This document shows, one piece after another, positions 354-50,593 of a stretch of DNA of 53,342 bases. The position numbers and the translations under genes are program-made. The DNA is from Candidatus Parcubacteria bacterium (GTDB lineage: Bacteria > Patescibacteriota > Minisyncoccia > Phycocordibacterales > UBA5272): assembly GCA_039796775.1 (NCBI GenBank), contig JBDKJD010000005.1, positions 1 to 53,342 on the forward strand. The letters run 5' to 3'. Under the pieces are notes generated by a model, which saw nothing but the letters and a program-made list of their open reading frames with translations, ran no database searches and was not told the DNA's origin. The stretch's first letter is position 1; each line of letters starts with the position of its first letter.

Positions 354-1208
354 TTATTTCCTCTCCTCAATTTTAAACGCCCCAGTCTTGTTGTTGATGG
401 TAACTACAAACTTTTCAGAAAATTCTTGCGGAAGTGATACGAGATTTTTGTCAGTCATCGCTTCTAGGGATGACGGGTATACGCCTGTTATTGTTTTGTA
501 TGCGAGGATGCCACGCTCAAGCATGGTAGTGAGCACTTCTTTTTCAAGACCGAGACCTAGTACTTTTTTTAATGTTTCATCATTAGTTGTATCATAAATC
601 ACTTTCACTAAATCAAATGACGCTTTGTAGCCTTTGACTTCATTGATAACAAAAGAAGAGTAATTGAGATACACCCCAGGTGGTGCATTTTTCTTCTCTG
701 CGGCTATTTTTAAATACTCTTTGGCTATGTTATAAGACTTTGTGAATAGATAGTATTGAGTTCCGAGATGATAGGGGATTTGCCAGCTTGTAGGGATGGT
801 TTCTATTCCTCGCTTGGCAACCTCTGCTACTTGATTCAAACGGTCGATATCATTTCTGTCTTGTGGAATAGTCCATATAGCGAAGAGATAAGGGTGTTCA
901 AAGCGTGGGTCAAGCGTTGATATGTTTTTGAAATAATCTAAAAAGAAAAGTTCTTCCCCATTCCAAGCCACGAAATCTTGTATCGCGCGTAACCAATAAA
1001 TGTCTGCCAAAAATGTCTTGAATCCAAAATGTCCATATGATAGCAACTCAGCCGGGATGAGATCTCGTTTGACTGCTTCTAATCTAAGTGAATAGGGTGG
1101 GGAAACTTTATCATAGTGTACATGAATTAATGAAGTGATACATAGTAAAGAAAGAGACAGCACTATGACAAGTATTTTTTCTTTATGATGTAACAGACTA
1201 ATCTTCAT
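354..1208 (-). CDS. Hypothetical membrane-anchored protein (N-terminal TM helix, helical repeat-like body)
   Basis: This is the track ORF 354..1268 trimmed to the internal ATG (MKISLLHH...). That start lies 5 nt after the stop of the upstream permease gene. The protein has a hydrophobic N-terminal helix and no recognisable catalytic motif. Confidence 0.6.
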   Translation of the reverse strand: MKISLLHHKEKILVIVLSLSLLCITSLIHVHYDKVSPPYSLRLEAVKRDLIPAELLSYGHFGFKTFLADIYWLRAIQDFVAWNGEELFFLDYFKNISTLDPRFEHPYLFAIWTIPQDRNDIDRLNQVAEVAKRGIETIPTSWQIPYHLGTQYYLFTKSYNIAKEYLKIAAEKKNAPPGVYLNYSSFVINEVKGYKASFDLVKVIYDTTNDETLKKVLGLGLEKEVLTTMLERGILAYKTITGVYPSSLEAMTDKNLVSLPQEFSEKFVVTINNKTGAFKIEERK

Positions 1209-1212
1209 GTAA

Positions 1213-1980
1213 TTAAAAATCTCTTTTCTTGAAAACATTAACAGCGATGAGAAGGAGAAGCGCGCCACATACTACTCCATAGATAATGGTATATAAGAGC
1301 ATCGGAAGAGATGGTAATGTTCCGTACACTACATCATTTCGTATATTGAACTTCTCAAAGTTGGGGACAATGGTGTATATGGTTTTGAAAACATATTCAG
1401 TTATTACATTATCGGTATATGTGAACATAAAACGATAAATATCTCCACCGTGAGCAATAAAATATACGGCCAGTGAAGAAATAAAAGCAAGCACCGGAGA
1501 CATAAACGATGAGAAGAGTAATGCAATCAGTATAAGAAGAATAGACTCAATAAAAGAAAGTGCGGCAGATAGGGTGATGGCAGGAATATAGCTCGTATTT
1601 CCAACAATCAGAAGTAGTACAAACAAAAATATTGTTGATAAAACAGTTACTGCGAATGTTGTTGTGGCGAGACCAAGCATTTTGCCTATAATAATTGCTT
1701 GGCGAGAGATTGGTTTTGGAATGATGAGATAAAAGGTTTTGCGTTCTATTTCTTTGTACATCAAGAAAGAACCGATGAACAATGCGATAAACACCTGAAG
1801 GAGGTATATTGCAGTGATGCTGAAGTTGGTGATAATACGCACATTGTGGTCATGAGAAATTGATCCAACAAAAAGACTAAACAAAATAATCCCAATAATA
1901 ACGAACCATACAGACATAAGTACTCGGTCACGAATAGTCTCTAGGAATGTATTTTTGGCGATAGTGATAATAGTATTCAT
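1213..1980 (-). CDS. ABC-2 type transporter permease
   Basis: A 255-aa polytopic membrane protein encoded directly downstream of the ABC ATPase gene. The architecture is typical of ABC-2 exporters. Confidence 0.7.
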   Translation of the reverse strand: MNTIITIAKNTFLETIRDRVLMSVWFVIIGIILFSLFVGSISHDHNVRIITNFSITAIYLLQVFIALFIGSFLMYKEIERKTFYLIIPKPISRQAIIIGKMLGLATTTFAVTVLSTIFLFVLLLIVGNTSYIPAITLSAALSFIESILLILIALLFSSFMSPVLAFISSLAVYFIAHGGDIYRFMFTYTDNVITEYVFKTIYTIVPNFEKFNIRNDVVYGTLPSLPMLLYTIIYGVVCGALLLLIAVNVFKKRDF

Positions 1981-5127: not shown

Positions 5128-5787
5128 ATGTTCATTACTCCAGCTATCTTTCCACATTCATTTCATCATTTGCATGAATTATTGTTCAAGACAGAAGGTG
5201 TCACAAAGAGAGTGCAGATTGATTTGTGTGACGGCGTTATTGGTCTTGAGAGAACATGGCTCCCATATAAAGAAACTCATTTACCTGATGGGTTCGAATA
5301 TGAGTTCGATCTCATGATTAAAGATTGGGTTAAATTTTTAAAGAGAGCGCTGTCGCTTGGAGCTAAGCGAGTCATACTTCATATTGATGCTTGGGAAGGG
5401 CATGATTTTTTGATGTTGCAAGAAATAATGTCTCATCATAAACATGTGAGCGTTGGTTTTTCTATATCCAATGATTCTCCGATTGATAATTTTATTGAAA
5501 GAGTGTTGATAGAACGACGGAATTTTAATAATGTATTTGTGCAGGTTATGGGTATACGCCATATAGGAGCACAAGGACAAGCGTTCGACGACAGAGTTCT
5601 TTTTGTTATAGAGAAGATTAAACGACGTATGCCTGATATTAGTGTTCAAGTAGATGGTGCGATGAATAACAGTACTATTTTTTTGGTGAAGCGATCAGGG
5701 GCCGATACTGCTGTCGTTGGTTCAGCGATATATGGGGAGTCTAATATACGAAAAGCATATGAAGAGATACTTGAGTCTTCTTCATAA
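5128..5787 (+). CDS. rpe: Ribulose-phosphate 3-epimerase family protein (divergent)
   Basis: A TIM-barrel pattern fits: ITPAIF, QIDLCDG, VDGAMN and GADTAVVGSAIY. The gene sits between rpiB and tkt. Confidence 0.6.
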   Translation: MFITPAIFPHSFHHLHELLFKTEGVTKRVQIDLCDGVIGLERTWLPYKETHLPDGFEYEFDLMIKDWVKFLKRALSLGAKRVILHIDAWEGHDFLMLQEIMSHHKHVSVGFSISNDSPIDNFIERVLIERRNFNNVFVQVMGIRHIGAQGQAFDDRVLFVIEKIKRRMPDISVQVDGAMNNSTIFLVKRSGADTAVVGSAIYGESNIRKAYEEILESSS

Positions 5788-6744: not shown

Positions 6745-7731
6745 ATGATACGAAAAACATTATTCACCCAACAAGAAGAAAGCAAAGCTACACGAGAAGG
6801 CTTTGGAGAAGGCTTGCTCTCAATTGGTCAAAAAGATTCTCGAGTCGTCGCGCTCTGTGCTGACTTAACTGAAAGTGTAAAGATGGATTCTTTCAGAAAT
6901 GCTTTTCCTGAAAGATTTTTTGAAGTTGGTATCACAGAACAAGCAATGTCAGGAGTTGCGTCCGGGATGGCTGCTATGGGGTATATTCCATTCATCGCTA
7001 GTTATGCGATGTTTAGTCCGGGACGTAATTGGGAACAGATACGAACGACTATTTGTTATAACAACATGCCAGTGAAGATAGTCGGGGCACATGCTGGGGT
7101 CTCAGTAGGGCCAGATGGTGCCACCCATCAAGCGATAGAAGATATCGCTATTATGAGAATGCTTCCTAATATGGAAGTGTATGTTCCTTGTGATGCTACA
7201 GAAGCCAAAGCTATTACAGAATATATCGCGACGAGTAATAAACCTGCGTATCTAAGATTAACAAGAGAAAAAACTCCTCTTATGGTGTTAGATAATTATG
7301 TGTGGCAACATGGCAAAATGTATAGCTTGTACACATCGCTTAATAAAAGCGGTGGAGATTATATGTATAATGTGGCTCTCATTGGCTCTGGTCCGATTCT
7401 CTATGAAGCTCTAAAAGCAGCGCCTCAATTAGAAAAGGAGGGAGTAGGAGTTCGAGTCATTAATGTTCCGCAGATCAAACCGCTCGATGTGGGAGGATTA
7501 TTGAGAATCGCCAAAGATGTTAAAGCAATTGTCACGGTAGAAGAGCATCAGATAGCGGGAGGGTTAGGAGGCTCGATAGCTGAATATTTAAGCGAGCACC
7601 ACCCTCTACGTATTGGTCGTATTGGTATACATGATAGATTCGGGCAAAGTGGAAAAGGGTTAGAATTATATGAAGAATACGGTCTCACCGCAAAACATAT
7701 TGTACAAAAAGTGAGAGAGACGTTGCACTAG
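6745..7731 (+). CDS. tkt: Transketolase, C-terminal (pyrimidine-binding) subunit
   Basis: Motifs GITEQAMSGVASG and GPDGATHQAIEDIA. It immediately follows the N-terminal subunit. Confidence 0.9.
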   Translation: MIRKTLFTQQEESKATREGFGEGLLSIGQKDSRVVALCADLTESVKMDSFRNAFPERFFEVGITEQAMSGVASGMAAMGYIPFIASYAMFSPGRNWEQIRTTICYNNMPVKIVGAHAGVSVGPDGATHQAIEDIAIMRMLPNMEVYVPCDATEAKAITEYIATSNKPAYLRLTREKTPLMVLDNYVWQHGKMYSLYTSLNKSGGDYMYNVALIGSGPILYEALKAAPQLEKEGVGVRVINVPQIKPLDVGGLLRIAKDVKAIVTVEEHQIAGGLGGSIAEYLSEHHPLRIGRIGIHDRFGQSGKGLELYEEYGLTAKHIVQKVRETLH

Positions 7732-43061: not shown

Positions 43062-44669
43062 ATGTTCGTGTACGATACAATTAATACACTTCTTGCTATT
43101 ATCTTTCTTTTTAATGCCGCACTTCTTTTGCCGCTACTTCGTAATGTTCGTAACAACGTCCAGACTTTTGTTTATGCGATTAACATAGTAATGATTCTTT
43201 TATGGGTGGTGACAATGATAGGGTATCGCTCACAGAATGAATATTTTGATACATGGTTACGAGCGCTGTATGTTGCGGCGATATTTATCGGTGTGACATA
43301 TATGCAGTTTACATTTTTCTACCCAACAGTTCTTAGAAATGCAAAATATTATATTTACGTTGTTAATATTCTTGCGTTCGGTACTGCTTACCTGGTGACC
43401 CTTACTAACACGATTATTGTGAAAGGGGTGGCATCAGAGGTTGGTGAGCCTGGTATTGTATTTGGTGCTCTGTATCCATTATATATAGCCATTATTCTAG
43501 TTCCTTTTATTGCAGGCTTTTCTCGTCATATATATCTTGTCTATAAAAAGAATGTTAAGGTAATGTATCTTCTTTCTGGGTATAGCATCTCTGCTAATGT
43601 AGCTTTTATCACAAACCTCATTCTCCCATGGTTTGGTATTTTTATCTTTAACTGGGTTGGCCAGTTCTTTACTGTTATTATGGTGCTTTTTACCACATAT
43701 TCGATCCTTAAGTTTAACGTTATGAATATACGTTTCTTCGCTATTAATGTCGGAGTAGTATTTTTACTTATAGTAACTACAGCGCAAGTACTTTTTGCAG
43801 ACTCTATAAAGAATCTAATGGTGAGCGGACTAGTACTCTTTATTTCTTCTATCACCGGCTACTATCTCATTAAAATTAATAAAAGTGAAAGGGATGCTCT
43901 AGATCACTCAAAGCTACTTAATAGGAAGTTGGCGGACGCCAACGAGAAGCTCAAGTCTCTCGATAAATTAAAATCAGAGTTCATCTCTCTTACTTCTCAT
44001 CAGTTACGCAGTCCGCTAACAGTCATTAAAGGGTATGCGTCAACTCTTACAGATGGCGTGGTGGGAGAGCTAGACCCGAAGCAAAAAGAGATCGTAAGGC
44101 ATATCTACACATCAGCTCAAGGCCTCGCTAATGTAGTAGAAGATTTTCTCAATGTCACCAAGATAGAACAAGGTGGTATGAAGTATGAGTTCGGACTAGT
44201 CAATATTAAACAGATAGTAGGGGACTTATCTAGTGATATGAGGATTGCTGCAGAAGATAGAGGGTTACGATTTGAGAGTGAGATTGATGATGTGCATGAT
44301 TACACAATAGAGGGTGATGCAACGAAATTAAAACAAGTGTTTCTTAACTTGGTAGATAATAGTATCAAATATACGAAAGAAGGTTTTGTTAAAGTGTCTC
44401 TTACTCAGAATTCTCTCGATAAGAGCATGAAGTTCTCAGTCTCGGATTCCGGTATCGGTATAAGCAAAGAAACAAAAGAAAAGTTGTTTACTAAGTTTGG
44501 ACGCGGAGCAGGAAGCGCTCTTAATGGTGGAGGGTCTGGTTTAGGGTTATACCTTGCACAAGCAATTGTCGAGGCACATAAAGGTACCATTGAAGTGTCA
44601 TCGCAAGGGGAAGGGAAAGGGTCTACATTTAGTGTATTTTTACCCCTTCACCTGCAAACGAAAAAGTAG
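43062..44669 (+). CDS. Sensor histidine kinase with polytopic N-terminal domain
   Basis: The H-box is SLTSHQLRSPL, the N-box NLVDNSIKYT, and the G-boxes DSGIGI and GSGLGL. Confidence 0.9.
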   Translation: MFVYDTINTLLAIIFLFNAALLLPLLRNVRNNVQTFVYAINIVMILLWVVTMIGYRSQNEYFDTWLRALYVAAIFIGVTYMQFTFFYPTVLRNAKYYIYVVNILAFGTAYLVTLTNTIIVKGVASEVGEPGIVFGALYPLYIAIILVPFIAGFSRHIYLVYKKNVKVMYLLSGYSISANVAFITNLILPWFGIFIFNWVGQFFTVIMVLFTTYSILKFNVMNIRFFAINVGVVFLLIVTTAQVLFADSIKNLMVSGLVLFISSITGYYLIKINKSERDALDHSKLLNRKLADANEKLKSLDKLKSEFISLTSHQLRSPLTVIKGYASTLTDGVVGELDPKQKEIVRHIYTSAQGLANVVEDFLNVTKIEQGGMKYEFGLVNIKQIVGDLSSDMRIAAEDRGLRFESEIDDVHDYTIEGDATKLKQVFLNLVDNSIKYTKEGFVKVSLTQNSLDKSMKFSVSDSGIGISKETKEKLFTKFGRGAGSALNGGGSGLGLYLAQAIVEAHKGTIEVSSQGEGKGSTFSVFLPLHLQTKK

Positions 44670-44711
44670 CCGAGACATATTTTTGTAAGGAATGATATAC
44701 TTTCTAACAAC

Positions 44712-45092
44712 ATGAGGAAAATAATGATCATAGAAGATGATAAAAGTCTGCAAGAGATTTATAAGATTAATTTTGAAGTCGCAGGCTTTGATGTCGTTAT
44801 CGAAGGTGATGGATTGTCCGGTATATCTACCGTTGTTGAAAAGAAACCAGATATTATTCTTCTAGATATAATGATGCCAAATATGGATGGCTTTGCATTT
44901 CTTCGTGCCTTAAAAGAGAATACGAGCATAAGTGTTCCGGTTGTTGTGTGTTCTAATCTTTCTGACAAAGAAACATACGATAAGGCGTTCGCGGCAGGTG
45001 CTTCAGCTGTACTGCTTAAAGTTGACTACTCTGGTAAAGAACTAGTTCAGAAGATTGAAGGGATACTCATGCAGAAGAAGAGTGCACATTAG
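44712..45092 (+). CDS. Receiver-only (CheY-like) response regulator
   Basis: It has IIEDD, the DIMMP phospho-acceptor Asp and a conserved K (LLKV). No output domain is present. Confidence 0.85.
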   Translation: MRKIMIIEDDKSLQEIYKINFEVAGFDVVIEGDGLSGISTVVEKKPDIILLDIMMPNMDGFAFLRALKENTSISVPVVVCSNLSDKETYDKAFAAGASAVLLKVDYSGKELVQKIEGILMQKKSAH

Positions 45093-45164
45093 AAGGGTTA
45101 CACACAGTAGAAAAGATAAGAAAAAGTTATACTCTTAAGATGGTGCGCTAAGTTATTTTATTAT

Positions 45165-46748
45165 ATGGACCTTTCTTCTTCTATTTTTTCGGACATTCAA
45201 TTTGATTTAATCGGTGTCGTGGTTGCTGTAGTGGGTATTCTCGTTTTAGCTGGTATTGTATTTGCTCGTAGTACTAACAGTATCACTAGCAGAAGTTTCT
45301 TTTTCTTTGCGTTCGTAACGATTTTTTGGGGGCTATCAAACTATTTTTTATATAAGTTTTCAGATCCAGAGCTCGCCCTTCTTGCCCTTCGGTTGCACAT
45401 CTTTTTAACCATATGGCACGCGTATTCTTTCTTTCAGCTTGCGTTCGTGTTCCCTTATGAGAATAAAGTGCTACCTGCTTGGCACAGATATGTTTTACTC
45501 CCTCTAGCATTTTTTACTTCGTCACTCCTCCTTATTCCTTTTATCTTCAAACAGGTAAGTGGCCTTATCTCAGTTAATGAAGTGATTAATCCAGAGCAGA
45601 GTCAAGGTATTATCTTGGCAGCCGTCGTAACATTTAGCTTCTTTGTCGCTGGACTTCTTGTACTCCTCCGTAGAGTTTATGAAACAAAAGGAGACGAGCG
45701 TAGGCAGGTTATGCTCATGTTTACTGGAATGTCACTAACCGCTGGACTCCTTCTCCTTTTTAGCTTTATTCTCCCGATTGGGTTTAAGAACTTTAACTTT
45801 GTGCCGTACGGAGCTTTATTTATATTCCCAGTTATTGTTTTTACTGCCTACGCTATTTATCTAGTCGAACTATTCCACGTCAAAAATATTTTCGCTGGAC
45901 TTTTTACATTCTTCCTGTGTACCGTTTCTCTCATAGAGCTCATTCTCGCTGAAAGTGTAGAACAAGTACTTCTTCGTGTTGCTGTCTTTTTCTTAACACT
46001 CATTATCGGTATCCAGCTTGTTAAAAACACTTTTGAAATTGAATTAGCCAATGAGCAGAAGTCGGAGATTATGTCTTTTGCTACCCACGAGATAAGAACA
46101 CCCCTTACTGTTATGCGTGGGTATGCAACAATGCTCTTAGACGGTGATAAGGGTGAGATTAGTCCGCGCGTCAGAGATCTTCTTCAAAAAATTCTCATTT
46201 CTGGAAATGATGTCATAACTTTGTTATCTCAGTATCTAGATAAGTCTAAAATTGAGCTCGGGCAGATAGAGTATGTAAAAGCCGATTTTGATCTCGCGCG
46301 TACGGTCAACGATGTGCTTAGCACTTTCCAGATCAACGCAGAACAAAAAGGTATCACTTTAACGAAAGCAGTTGAGACTAAAGAGAGGCACATGGTTTTT
46401 GCGGATCAGTCGAAAATCAAAGAAGTACTAACGAATGTTATTGATAATGCGCTTAAGTACACACCACACGGCTCAGTTAATGTTTCTGTTCGAAATGAAA
46501 AGGATTTAGTAATTGTTAAAGTGTCAGACACTGGGATCGGTATCAAGCAAGATACGATACCGCATCTTTTTAAGGAATTTTCTAGAGCTGATCTAAAGAG
46601 AGTGAATATTCTCGGCTCAGGTATTGGTCTTTATTTAGCCAAGAAGTTTATCGAAGCTCACAAGGGAAGAATTTGGGTTGAGTCAGAAGGCGAAGGGAAG
46701 GGGACTCAGTTTTTTATACAGTTACCAGAATCTAAGACAAAGCACTAG
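45165..46748 (+). CDS. Sensor histidine kinase with polytopic N-terminal domain (paralog of 43062..44669)
   Basis: The H-box is SFATHEIRTPL, the N-box NVIDNALKYT, and the G-boxes DTGIGI and GSGIGL. Confidence 0.9.
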   Translation: MDLSSSIFSDIQFDLIGVVVAVVGILVLAGIVFARSTNSITSRSFFFFAFVTIFWGLSNYFLYKFSDPELALLALRLHIFLTIWHAYSFFQLAFVFPYENKVLPAWHRYVLLPLAFFTSSLLLIPFIFKQVSGLISVNEVINPEQSQGIILAAVVTFSFFVAGLLVLLRRVYETKGDERRQVMLMFTGMSLTAGLLLLFSFILPIGFKNFNFVPYGALFIFPVIVFTAYAIYLVELFHVKNIFAGLFTFFLCTVSLIELILAESVEQVLLRVAVFFLTLIIGIQLVKNTFEIELANEQKSEIMSFATHEIRTPLTVMRGYATMLLDGDKGEISPRVRDLLQKILISGNDVITLLSQYLDKSKIELGQIEYVKADFDLARTVNDVLSTFQINAEQKGITLTKAVETKERHMVFADQSKIKEVLTNVIDNALKYTPHGSVNVSVRNEKDLVIVKVSDTGIGIKQDTIPHLFKEFSRADLKRVNILGSGIGLYLAKKFIEAHKGRIWVESEGEGKGTQFFIQLPESKTKH

Positions 46749-46750
46749 GT

Positions 46751-47152
46751 ATGAAGAAAATTTTAATCATCGAGGATAACAAAGACTTGCAGGATATCTA
46801 TAGACATAGCTTCGAAAAAGATGGATATACAGTTGTAACTAAAGATAACGGACAAGATGGGTTCGATGCAATAGCAGAGGAGTTACCAGATGTTATTTTG
46901 CTTGATTTAATGATGCCTGGGGTTAATGGCTTTGAGTTTCTTCAGAAGATAAAAGCTATTGAGGGGGTGAATATTCCCGTTATTGTATGCTCTAATATTT
47001 CTGATATAGAAATGATAAATAAAGCTATTCAGGAAGGAGCCGCAGCTGTCCTTCTCAAAGTCGACTATGTTGGCAGACAATTAGTCGATAAGGTTAATTA
47101 TTTGGTTGAAGAATTTAACAAGAAAAAAGAAAACACCGAAGAAGTTGCTTAA
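46751..47152 (+). CDS. Receiver-only (CheY-like) response regulator (paralog of 44712..45092)
   Basis: It has IIEDN, DLMMP and LLKVDY. No output domain is present. Confidence 0.85.
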   Translation: MKKILIIEDNKDLQDIYRHSFEKDGYTVVTKDNGQDGFDAIAEELPDVILLDLMMPGVNGFEFLQKIKAIEGVNIPVIVCSNISDIEMINKAIQEGAAAVLLKVDYVGRQLVDKVNYLVEEFNKKKENTEEVA

Positions 47153-49007: not shown

Positions 49008-49279
49008 GCCAAGATAGCTCAGTTGGTAGAGCACTTCCATGGTGGGTCGTAAAAGATTCCTGCCCACTGTATAGGTAACTATGTAGTGAATCCCGAATAA
49101 CGGTTAACGGCTGATAATAAGCTAAGACCGTGGCGTTACTTTTTTAAAAGTTTTAACGCCCGAACGACTGACAAGGGTATCCATGTATGGATAAAGATAC
49201 AGTCTAGTCCCTGTGTATAAGAATGAAGATAGGGTGTAAACGAAGGAAGAGGTCGCGGGTTCGATTCCCGCTCTTGGCT
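49008..49279 (+). tRNA. tRNA-Thr(GGU) interrupted by a group I intron after anticodon position 36
   Basis: Exons 49008-49043 and 49243-49279 join into a 73-nt cloverleaf. The acceptor stem is GCCAAGA/TCTTGGC and the D arm GCTC-AGTTGGTA-GAGC. The anticodon stem is CTTCC/GGAAG with loop ATGGTAA. The V loop is AGGTC and the T arm GCGGG-TTCGATT-CCCGC. An alternative splice junction would give ACG (Arg), but the intron would then lack a terminal G. Confidence 0.8.
49044..49242 (+). ncRNA. Group I intron (small, no ORF)
   Basis: P1 is GGTGGG/CCTGCC with U.G at the splice site. P2 is CACTGTATA/TATGTAGTG (49065-49088). P6 is GGCGTTA/TAACGCC (49132-49160). The R-like element is GAACGACTGACA and the S-like element AAGATACAGTCTAGTCC. 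P7 is GACTG/CAGTC, P8 TATCCAT/ATGGATA and P9 CCCT/AGGG. The intron ends in G at 49242. Confidence 0.8.
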
Positions 49280-49287
49280 CAAAAAAT

Positions 49288-50400
49288 ATGACACAGGAAC
49301 AATTTCCTCAGCAACCAGCACAGTCAAAGAGAGAGTCTGATTTTGAAAAAATGGAGACTGGCAAAAAAGTTTTTGATTTTTTAGAGAGAATAAAGTTTTT
49401 AGAATTTAGGAAGTCTGATGAAGATTTTGAGAAATGGATAAAGCAACTATCTTTTGAAGAGTTTGAACAATATCTCAACCGTTTAAATGGTATGATGAGA
49501 AGCTTGCCAAAAGACGAGAGGGGCAGGGATGGTGACGATGTGAAGATTGAAACCTCTAATCCTTTTATATCTTACACTGAATATCTTCCACCGGATTCTT
49601 CCCAAAAAGACTCTTTAATGAAAGAAGCTTTTGTTGCATTTAAGCAAATTTCAAATAACGAAGATAGAGCACTGCTACTTTACTATATTATACAAGCTGT
49701 TCATCCGTACTCTGATGGGAATGGAAGACTCGGAAGACTTCTTTACGAACTGGTATCTAGCAGTGGTAAAGACTTAAAAGAAGAAGACTTATCTAAGTAC
49801 CTTGATCACAATAAAAAAGGTCATAATGGAAATGGGGAAGGGAGGGAATTTTTCGCAAAGAAGATATTAGAACCAAAACATGCCTATTATTATATTAATA
49901 GAGAGGTTGCCCGCGAAGTTCTTGGAAAAGGTTTTACGCAAGAATATGGGAAGCTTTATCTTTATTCCCCGCTTGATAGTGCGCCAACATTTAATCATCT
50001 TAAAGAGGGTGACGATGGATTATCTGTTAGAGAGCTTAGTTTAGCTCAAACTGCTCTTCAGCAGACGGGTGTAGATCATTTTTCATTTAGTGGACTTATC
50101 TTGTCAAAACTCATGCAGGAAAAATCTTCTTTACAAAAATATCAAAAACAAGGTATGATTTTGGGTGATAATTTTGGTGTGGCTCAAGAAGATGTGAATA
50201 AGCATATATTTTCAATTGACGACGAAGAGATGGTTAAAGAATTTACAGCGGGAGATGTTCGGAGAATAATTGAGATTAATAGCGACCTTAAAATTAAATT
50301 TGTGAGAACAATCATTGACATTTTTGTTCACCCAGAAAGCCATCAAGTAAAAGTTTCTGAAGATGAAGAAAGTCTTCCAATAAAGCAACTTTTTTCCTAG
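49288..50400 (+). CDS. Fic-domain protein (putative AMPylase or other NMP-transferase)
   Basis: The core motif HPYSDGNGRLGR matches HxFx(D/E)GNGRxxR. The gene starts 9 nt after the tRNA. Confidence 0.8.
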   Translation: MTQEQFPQQPAQSKRESDFEKMETGKKVFDFLERIKFLEFRKSDEDFEKWIKQLSFEEFEQYLNRLNGMMRSLPKDERGRDGDDVKIETSNPFISYTEYLPPDSSQKDSLMKEAFVAFKQISNNEDRALLLYYIIQAVHPYSDGNGRLGRLLYELVSSSGKDLKEEDLSKYLDHNKKGHNGNGEGREFFAKKILEPKHAYYYINREVAREVLGKGFTQEYGKLYLYSPLDSAPTFNHLKEGDDGLSVRELSLAQTALQQTGVDHFSFSGLILSKLMQEKSSLQKYQKQGMILGDNFGVAQEDVNKHIFSIDDEEMVKEFTAGDVRRIIEINSDLKIKFVRTIIDIFVHPESHQVKVSEDEESLPIKQLFS

Positions 50401-50556
50401 ATTTTAATTTAAACTGTAATCTAAATTAGTCAGAGTAGTTTGGTTGATAAGGTGTTTTTCCTATAACAAATAGAGCCTAAGTCCCATCTTCGTTTGTTGT
50501 TTTTACACCCCCCCATTCTATTTACGCTATCCCACTAAAAGCGTACACTATTCTCT

Positions 50557-50593
<37 letters not shown>

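Follow-up and report, generated by a model that had tools for sequence, protein, structure and literature searches.

For tRNA genes split by group I introns, the number of types, as defined by host and insertion site, was raised from four classical ones to 21 by Williams (2020, bioRxiv 10.1101/2020.01.27.920355), and the type Thr.5Ug is among them. The same study found many split tRNAs in metagenomic 'unnamed phyla'. It has further been reported that group I introns made some tRNAs difficult to find in circularized genomes, nearly all of them belonging to the CPR (Lui et al., 2021, PMC8172020). The present analysis concerns a tRNA-Thr(GGU) gene carrying an insert of 199 nt, situated in a stretch of DNA of 53,342 nucleotides that was analysed as a whole and is referred to as the window. 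The original prediction for this locus had named four tRNAs as the known hosts, a list that is outdated by the 21 types including Thr.5Ug, and had regarded a tRNA-Thr host in a CPR genome as an extension of the known distribution. Both the host and the site are found in Williams (2020), and tRNA introns in the CPR are found in Lui et al. (2021). The host site is already known, and it is apparently the intron lineage that is undescribed.

The type Thr.5Ug, with Rba53.Thr.5Ug as its seed, shares with the window a tRNA-Thr host, an insertion after the third anticodon base (loop position 5), a U at position -1, and an omega-G, and the window intron belongs to this type as it is defined. In both cases P1 is formed from GGU and a guide ending in ...GCC. 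When it comes to the introns themselves, Rba53.Thr.5Ug and the window intron have no detectable similarity in sequence (z = 0.0 in a local alignment). With 261 nt the seed is longer than the window intron (199 nt), and it is GC-rich with an IC3-type core (AAAUUCGGGG ... GUAGAGACCA ... AAGGGAUGGUCC). By inspection, the P7 strand ACGACUG of the window family is present in none of the 26 seeds of Williams (2020), and the family scores 11-16 bits on Rfam, while the entry threshold in the first phase of that study was 18-20 bits.

The intron in tRNA-Ile(CAU) of Azoarcus and those in tRNA-Arg(CCU) of Agrobacterium and cyanobacteria are of the IC3 type, and they are like the window intron inserted 3' of nucleotide 36 with the anticodon in P1. 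As they are generally described, they also share with it a small size, the lack of an ORF, a GNRA L2 and the absence of large peripheral domains. The rank of smallest natural self-splicer is usually given to the Azoarcus intron, with 205 nt; both the window intron, at 199 nt, and many of its relatives (171-200 nt) fall below this commonly quoted length. However, both the core motifs and the host tRNA differ, and the Azoarcus intron displays no sequence similarity to the window intron (z = -1.4). The IC3 signature, as seen in Azoarcus and Anabaena, consists of AAAUUCGG in J3/4-P4, GUAGAGACUA in P7, and AAGGGAUAGUCC in J8/7. The window intron instead carries GAAUAACGGU, CGAACGACUG, and AAAGAUACAGUC, and thus lacks the IC3 signature. 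The covariance model R1 described below, which detects phage introns, did not detect the tRNA-Arg(CCU) introns of cyanobacteria in L035 and L106 at E <= 1.

The lineage of the window intron is unlike the classical IC3 tRNA introns and resembles introns of phages. Introns of Firmicutes myophages (Staphylococcus, Listeria, Enterococcus, Bacillus) and of IMG/VR contigs have the 18-mer AAAGAUAYAGUCUAGUCC, covering J8/7, P7, and J7/9, in common with the window, and also the P9 hairpin and the 3' end GGGUGUAAACG. The 18-mer from J8/7-P7 matches 21 IMG/VR contigs. On R1 the phage introns score 20-33 bits (E = 1e-9 to 1e-4), and a pairwise comparison of a phage intron with the window intron gave z = 7.2, with the similarity lying mainly in the 3' half. 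Unlike the window intron, the phage introns are located outside tRNA genes, as ARAGORN found a split tRNA around none of the 21. At L002, L003, L007, L011, L013, L014, and other IMG/VR loci the phage introns end in CCC...GGGUGUAAACG. In the one Staphylococcus phage relative that was checked, a structural gene is followed by a gap in the annotation, and the intron is located there.

The split tRNA-Thr(GGU) gene and its empty site

When introns were allowed, ARAGORN called one split gene in the 53-kb window, a tRNA-Thr(GGU) that spans 49008-49280 and in which nucleotide 36 is followed by an intron of 199 nt. Without introns, which is the default mode, the program called no tRNA in the window. 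The two exons, of which the first is closed by U 49043, join to a cloverleaf of 73 nt with the anticodon loop AUGGUAA, while G 49242 closes the insert (Table 1). An intron-aware tRNA predictor, which had been suggested together with the original prediction, thus returns the isoacceptor that had been proposed.

A 44-mer across the predicted ligated junction was used as a query, and it matched five metagenome contigs (L142-L146). All five contain an uninterrupted tRNA-Thr(GGU) gene that is identical to the joined exons of the window in 73 of 73 positions, and these genes score 73.3 bits as tRNA in Rfam (gathering score 29). In blastn, each of the five contigs aligns to the window as far as 49043 and then again from 49243, the two parts being contiguous in the contig. 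The 199 nt thus constitute a separate insertion, and a genuine tRNA gene is left when they are taken out. Since the intron begins with G and the 3' exon with A, the placement of the insertion is unambiguous. The empty site can be regarded as the DNA-level equivalent of the spliced product. Both the proposed 73-nt cloverleaf and the exon and intron coordinates, with the intron after position 36, had been predicted exactly to the base, as seen from the ARAGORN placement and from the alignment break at 49043|49243 in the relatives.

The relatives are found at several distances from the window. TrmD of L146 and L143 is 97% identical to that of the window, and L146 also encodes an MgsA that is 95% and an HK2 that is 94% identical, in the order HK-RR-rpsP-KH-trmD-tRNA...MgsA-prfB as in the window. 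L145 is more distant than these two, its TrmD being 84% identical. The exact empty site is borne by relatives with about 85% DNA identity in the flanks; against this divergence of about 15%, the exons are unchanged.

No ORF of more than 22 aa on the + strand overlaps the 199-nt insert, leaving no candidate for an intron-encoded endonuclease, and the original prediction was right on this point. On the - strand, an ORF of 63 aa starts in the intron and extends through the 3' exon into the next gene. Scanning for sigma-70-like promoters and terminators beside the split gene gave none, a result that is uninformative for such organisms.

Table 1. Features of the split tRNA-Thr(GGU) gene in the window.
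Feature	Position	Strand	Basis
5' exon, tRNA-Thr(GGU) nucleotides 1-36, ending in anticodon G34 G35 U36	49008-49043	+	ARAGORN with introns; identical in the five uninterrupted genes
Group I intron of 199 nt lacking an ORF; begins with G and ends with omega-G	49044-49242	+	Exactly missing from L143, L145, L146; R1 score; covariation
3' exon, nucleotides 37-73 (A37 to discriminator U73), CCA not encoded	49243-49279	+	ARAGORN; five uninterrupted genes
P1 5' strand, anticodon GGU and intron GGG, splice site after U 49043	49041-49046	+	Pairs with 49059-49064; intron-side pairs covary
P1 3' strand, internal guide CCUGCC	49059-49064	+	GCC invariant in alignment A1
P2 hairpin, 10 bp, loop L2 GUAA (GNRA) at 49075-49078	49065-49088	+	10 of 10 pairs compensatory; in MFE fold
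P3 5' strand CCC	49092-49094	+	Pairs with 49175-49177; 3 of 3 pairs covary, 100% paired
P4 (49100-49104 with 49127-49131) around P5 (49109-49112 with 49120-49123)	49100-49131	+	Both in MFE fold
P6 hairpin (49132-49138 with 49154-49160)	49132-49160	+	5 of 7 pairs compensatory, e.g. GG/CC to CC/GG; in MFE fold
P7 5' strand GACUG within R-like element CGAACGACUGACAAGGG	49166-49170	+	Invariant in 44 of 44; pairs with 49200-49204
P3 3' strand GGG, makes P3/P7 pseudoknot	49175-49177	+	Covariation count on A1
P8 hairpin AUCCA-UGUA-UGGAU	49179-49192	+	5 of 5 pairs covary; Rfam Intron_gpI aligns the same helix
J8/7 (AAAGAUA) and P7 3' strand (CAGUC), S-like element	49193-49204	+	Matches Rfam Intron_gpI consensus AAGAUAUAGUC
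P9 hairpin CCCU ... AGGG	49209-49234	+	3 of 4 pairs covary
3' tail UGUAAACG, last base omega-G 49242	49235-49242	+	Tail comparison in the family

Secondary structure and covariation of the intron

The helices P1-P9 were drawn on the window sequence, and the pairs were counted in a structure-blind MAFFT alignment of 44 diverse homologues (A1). In A1, 92.4% of the cells form standard pairs, compared to 35-44% when the partners are slid by one to three columns, and 35 of the 53 pairs display compensatory changes in which both sides have changed. None of 500 shuffles reached the observed values for pairing or compensatory changes. Covariation is seen in P2, P3, P5, P6, P8, P9, the intron side of P1, and the anticodon stem, where all four counted pairs covary and pairing is 100% in the 44 homologues. 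P4 and P7 are invariant on A1, and covariation speaks neither for nor against them.

The covariance model R1 was built from A1, and full-length scores of 134-200 bits were obtained for 54 family members outside its seed. The window intron scores 200 bits and equals the best of these non-seed members, being itself a member of the seed. In an alignment fitted to R1 and comprising 56 matches (the 54 non-seed family members and two weak matches to other introns), 93.4% of the cells are paired and 39 of 48 pairs are compensatory.

In P1 the guide pairs G 49062 with U36, C 49063 with G35, and C 49064 with G34. The resulting U.G wobble at the 5' splice site, between the anticodon GGU and the guide GCC, is found in 100 of 100 sequences (44 of 44 and 56 of 56), and 97 of 100 homologues have a GNRA loop as L2. 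Compensatory changes in P5 are seen for two of the four pairs in A1 and for all four in alignment A2, while P4 is invariant. The R-like motif CGAACGACUGACAAGGG is present in 96 of 97 family members. The J8/7-P7 segment of the window, AAAGAUACAGUC, aligns with the Rfam Intron_gpI consensus AAGAUAUAGUC, and the R- and S-like core elements that had been proposed earlier are recognizable in these two segments. All 97 members contain AUACAGUCUAG, a figure that is partly by construction as AGTCTAG belonged to the search pattern. The tail UGUAA(A/G)CG was found in 67 of the 97. The position of the omega-G, G 49242, is fixed by the empty site in L142-L146; its conservation across the family is partly by construction, since a G was demanded by the search pattern.

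Every predicted pair in the window intron is a standard pair, and the MFE fold of this intron alone gives P2, P4, P5, P6, P7, P8, and P9 (z = -2.5). The P4-P6 and P3-P8 domains with the P3/P7 pseudoknot have their helices in the canonical order of a group I core. The original prediction had listed P1, P2, P6, P7, P8, and P9 together with a U.G pair at the 5' splice site and a terminal G; all of these are there (U36.G 49062 and G 49242), and P3, P4, and P5 can be added from the drawn fold, the covariation, and the MFE fold. By its boundaries and secondary structure 49044-49242 is identified as a group I intron, for which catalysis would be expected from established knowledge of such introns. 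Both the tRNA and the core of the intron are under purifying selection.

Taken together, the exact empty site, the covariation over about 100 homologues, and the U.G and omega-G boundaries indicate that this is a tRNA-Thr(GGU) gene split after nucleotide 36 by a compact, ORF-less group I intron. On the evidence of sequence, the main claim of the original prediction is thereby borne out.

Homologues, annotation and history

A degenerate pattern joining P7 to the 3' half of the tRNA identified at least 120 loci in species-representative genomes. The pattern demanded AGTCTAG, a G before AA, and the T-arm, and the conservation of those features is partly by construction. After filtering for a U before the intron, a G at its end, and a paired anticodon stem, at least 96 loci in addition to the window resolve as tRNA-Thr(GGU) split at 36/37. 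At least six further family members were found using R1, namely five that are cut by the edge of the locus and L079, which the anticodon-stem filter had rejected. Among the matches listed, intron length ranges from 171 to 230 nt (median 194), and the one nearest to the window intron is 67% identical to it. The window intron is compact, as had been expected of a very small candidate ribozyme, but 199 nt is typical of the family, whose smallest member among the matches listed is 171 nt.

The titles of the host records among the matches listed are mostly those of Patescibacteria (Saccharibacteria, Kaiser-, Wolfe-, Nomura-, Paceibacteria, and others); a few are MAGs with other labels, and one is the RefSeq record of an isolate, Niastella populi. 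This last one (L061, NZ_LWBP01000002.1) is a 300-kb contig whose record bears the title Niastella populi CCTCC AB 208238, an isolate of the Bacteroidota in culture; the family member at 5225-5423 on its - strand scores 190.8 bits on R1 and is part of the R1 seed. Of this R1 match the intron itself occupies 5234-5414, with nine exon nucleotides on either side. L023 resembles L061, and L025 is labelled Pedobacter. Going by the record titles of L061, L023, and L025, the intron family may also exist outside the CPR. The copy in the record titled as a cultured isolate offers a possible direct test of splicing.

Some other introns were seen in a number of the CPR loci. L080 contains a group I intron of 192 nt in tRNA-Tyr(GUA) at 7198-7409 (- strand), which is like the Tyr.4Ug of Williams and adjoins a tRNA-Thr gene. 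In L085 a group I intron at 963-1281 (- strand), near a tRNA-Thr gene, scores 54.6 bits in Rfam; for the same locus there is also a separate ARAGORN call of a tRNA-Ser(UGA) with an intron of 202 nt. Two weaker R1 matches, L109 7033-7264 (- strand) and L072 2751-2978 (+ strand), are also found near a tRNA-Thr gene.

Standard annotation tools do not recognize the family. Rfam gave nothing in the window at gathering thresholds; in a local scan Intron_gpI (RF00028) scored 13.7 bits (E = 0.59), where the gathering score is 50, and the alignment covers only P8, J8/7, and P7. Two other family members scored 10.7 and 16.1 bits, and none of 15 homologous loci reached the gathering score of Intron_gpI. 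None of the Rfam seed sequences for group I introns is bacterial (Williams, 2020, bioRxiv 10.1101/2020.01.27.920355). The low Intron_gpI score is due to the model, which is weak for this lineage, and not to the absence of an intron. With the original prediction, a covariance model giving no hit had been named as a refutation, and the failure to match at gathering score (13.7 bits) is here a false negative. The blanks obtained from default ARAGORN and Rfam were dropped as evidence of absence because the intron-aware and comparative tests succeeded.

Even with introns allowed, ARAGORN shifts the boundary by 1-2 nt in about 60 homologues among the matches listed (e.g., L023, L027, and L073). Its calls of tRNA-Arg(GCG), Pro(GGG), and His(GUG) were rejected, as those loci have the U at -1, the omega-G, and the paired anticodon stem only when read as Thr(GGU). 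With the exons rejoined, ARAGORN calls Thr(GGU) in 95 of 97. CPR genomes would otherwise seem to be without tRNA-Thr(GGU) or to have odd isoacceptors, which distorts assessments of tRNA sets and completeness, and the family-specific model R1 mends this annotation gap. The current understanding of how group I introns work is not changed. The main value lies in annotation, in a source of very small natural group I cores, of which about 100 natural variants are on offer, and in a natural pair of filled and empty sites.

The identity between introns is correlated with that between the PrfB proteins (rho = 0.24; none of 2000 permutations as high), for which a prfB homologue near the split tRNA is found in 36 loci, mostly of Patescibacteria, among the matches listed. 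The correlation fits an intron family that, as far as such comparisons reveal, is partly vertically inherited. The tRNA-Leu(UAA) intron of cyanobacteria and plastids is likewise fixed in one isoacceptor over a large clade with a vertical signal. It differs from the window family in its site (34/35 versus 36/37), in being IC3, and in its clade, and also in that the presence of the window family varies between close relatives. In the lineage of the window the intron was probably gained recently; this is the simpler reading because all five intronless contigs, which lie at several distances from the window, are without it. The family could plausibly have spread without an endonuclease, either through reverse splicing or through recombination between conserved exons. 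It might further be proposed, tentatively and with more doubt than confidence, that the family constitutes a distinct lineage of minimal group I ribozymes unseen by current models, related to those of phages and not to IC3, which resides in tRNA-Thr(GGU) of much of the Patescibacteria and is still mobile without an endonuclease, for instance by reverse splicing via GCC:GGU.

Function of the split gene and its surroundings

The segment 49008-49279 very probably encodes a functional tRNA-Thr(GGU) that is interrupted between U36 and A37 by the 199-nt group I intron, with the splicing chemistry as a predicted property. Several observations point to a gene that works: its exons match those of the relatives exactly in spite of flanks that are about 15% different, the anticodon stem shows covariation and is perfectly paired, and there is no second tRNA-Thr(GGU) in the loci of about 8 kb, in which the nearby Thr(CGU) and Thr(UGU) genes among the matches listed are uninterrupted. 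In numbers, an intact second tRNA-Thr(GGU) was found within about 8 kb in none of at least 120 loci, while the uninterrupted neighbours among the matches listed amount to 35 Thr(CGU) and 20 Thr(UGU) genes.

In the proposed mechanism a single precursor transcript would span the exons and the intron. The anticodon G34-G35-U36 would pair with the guide GCC (49062-49064) to form P1, with the U36.G wobble at the splice site, and the core would fold into the P4-P6 and P3-P8 domains, linked by the P3/P7 pseudoknot and braced by the GNRA loop L2. A free guanosine held in P7 would then attack the bond after U36. For the last step G 49242 would replace the guanosine, and the 3'-OH of U36 would attack the bond before A37, ligating the exons to a tRNA of 73 nt.

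The intron might instead be group I-derived without being an autonomous ribozyme, either in need of a host or trans-acting protein (a maturase or chaperone) or splicing too poorly alone, which is considered unlikely. Many natural group I introns require proteins, and a very compact intron such as this one, with members down to 171 nt among the matches listed, few peripheral stabilising elements, and a low score on the general Rfam model, could be a case in point. Yet all the core helices are there and under selection, and the GNRA L2 found in 97 of 100 fits bracing by RNA-only tertiary contacts as in the Azoarcus intron. Nor is there a conserved protein gene beside the intron, as synteny among the matches listed varies except for the housekeeping genes prfB and trmD. 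The suggestion that the insert is not a group I intron at all, but an archaeal-type protein-spliced intron, a miniature transposon, or an assembly artefact, has a next to negligible probability. It could draw on the lack of an Rfam match at gathering score, but like inserts are present in about 100 independent assemblies with a P3/P7 pseudoknot core backed by covariation, with U.G and omega-G at the exact boundaries, and with a J8/7-P7 that fits the group I consensus. The significant resemblance to group I introns of phages (R1 scores of 20-33 bits, pairwise z = 7.2) argues in the same direction, as do the absence of terminal repeats and target duplications and the site itself, which is 36/37 while protein-spliced introns are found at 37/38.

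It is very improbable that the locus is a decaying tRNA pseudogene with a dead intron while a second, intact tRNA-Thr(GGU) elsewhere does the work. The visible sequence is 53 kb of genome, leaving room for such a gene, and close relatives are uninterrupted at the same locus, so that the split state is not obligatory in the clade. Decay is, however, difficult to reconcile with exons that are identical in 73 of 73 positions to the intact genes of relatives with flanks about 15% different, or with an intron in which all pairs are standard and all invariant core motifs are kept. The R1 score also equals that of the best non-seed member, though the window intron is in the seed, and compensatory changes are seen in about 100 species without a second GGU gene nearby in any of them. 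A functional tRNA-Thr(GGU) gene split by a group I intron remains the preferred reading.

The genes around the split tRNA serve cellular housekeeping. Upstream of it, on the same strand, are two histidine kinase/response regulator pairs, rpsP, a gene for a KH-domain protein, and trmD. Downstream, also on the same strand, are genes for a Fic-domain protein, MgsA, and a peptide release factor with PCRF/RF-1 domains, which is labelled prfB without the label separating RF1 from RF2. The order rpsP-KH-trmD-tRNA-Thr is common to the window and the Parcubacteria MAG L132, with proteins that are 45-67% identical. Together with the prfB homologues near split tRNAs in mostly Patescibacteria loci, this makes the label 'CPR-like' a reasonable one for the window. 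The split tRNA-Thr is the sole tRNA gene detectable in window 1-53342, where no rRNA or other Rfam family was found at threshold, and the region of the split gene has no blastn match among annotated phages.

A second indel is located directly downstream of the tRNA, where the Fic-domain gene (49288-50400) and its flanks, comprising window 49286-50515, are missing in L146. In that contig a long perfect hairpin comes after the tRNA, and about 330 bp precede MgsA. An integrative-element origin of the intron was considered and rejected, since there are no att-like direct repeats or target duplications of note around the tRNA and the Fic insertion. The tandem heptamer ACTAGCC is found at window 50557-50586 as two overlapping 16-nt copies, and in five copies just upstream of MgsA in L146. 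The two histidine kinase/response regulator pairs are consecutive and occupy window 43062-47152. The second kinase has an N-terminal 7TM domain, and HK2 and RR2 are kept at 93-94% identity in L146.
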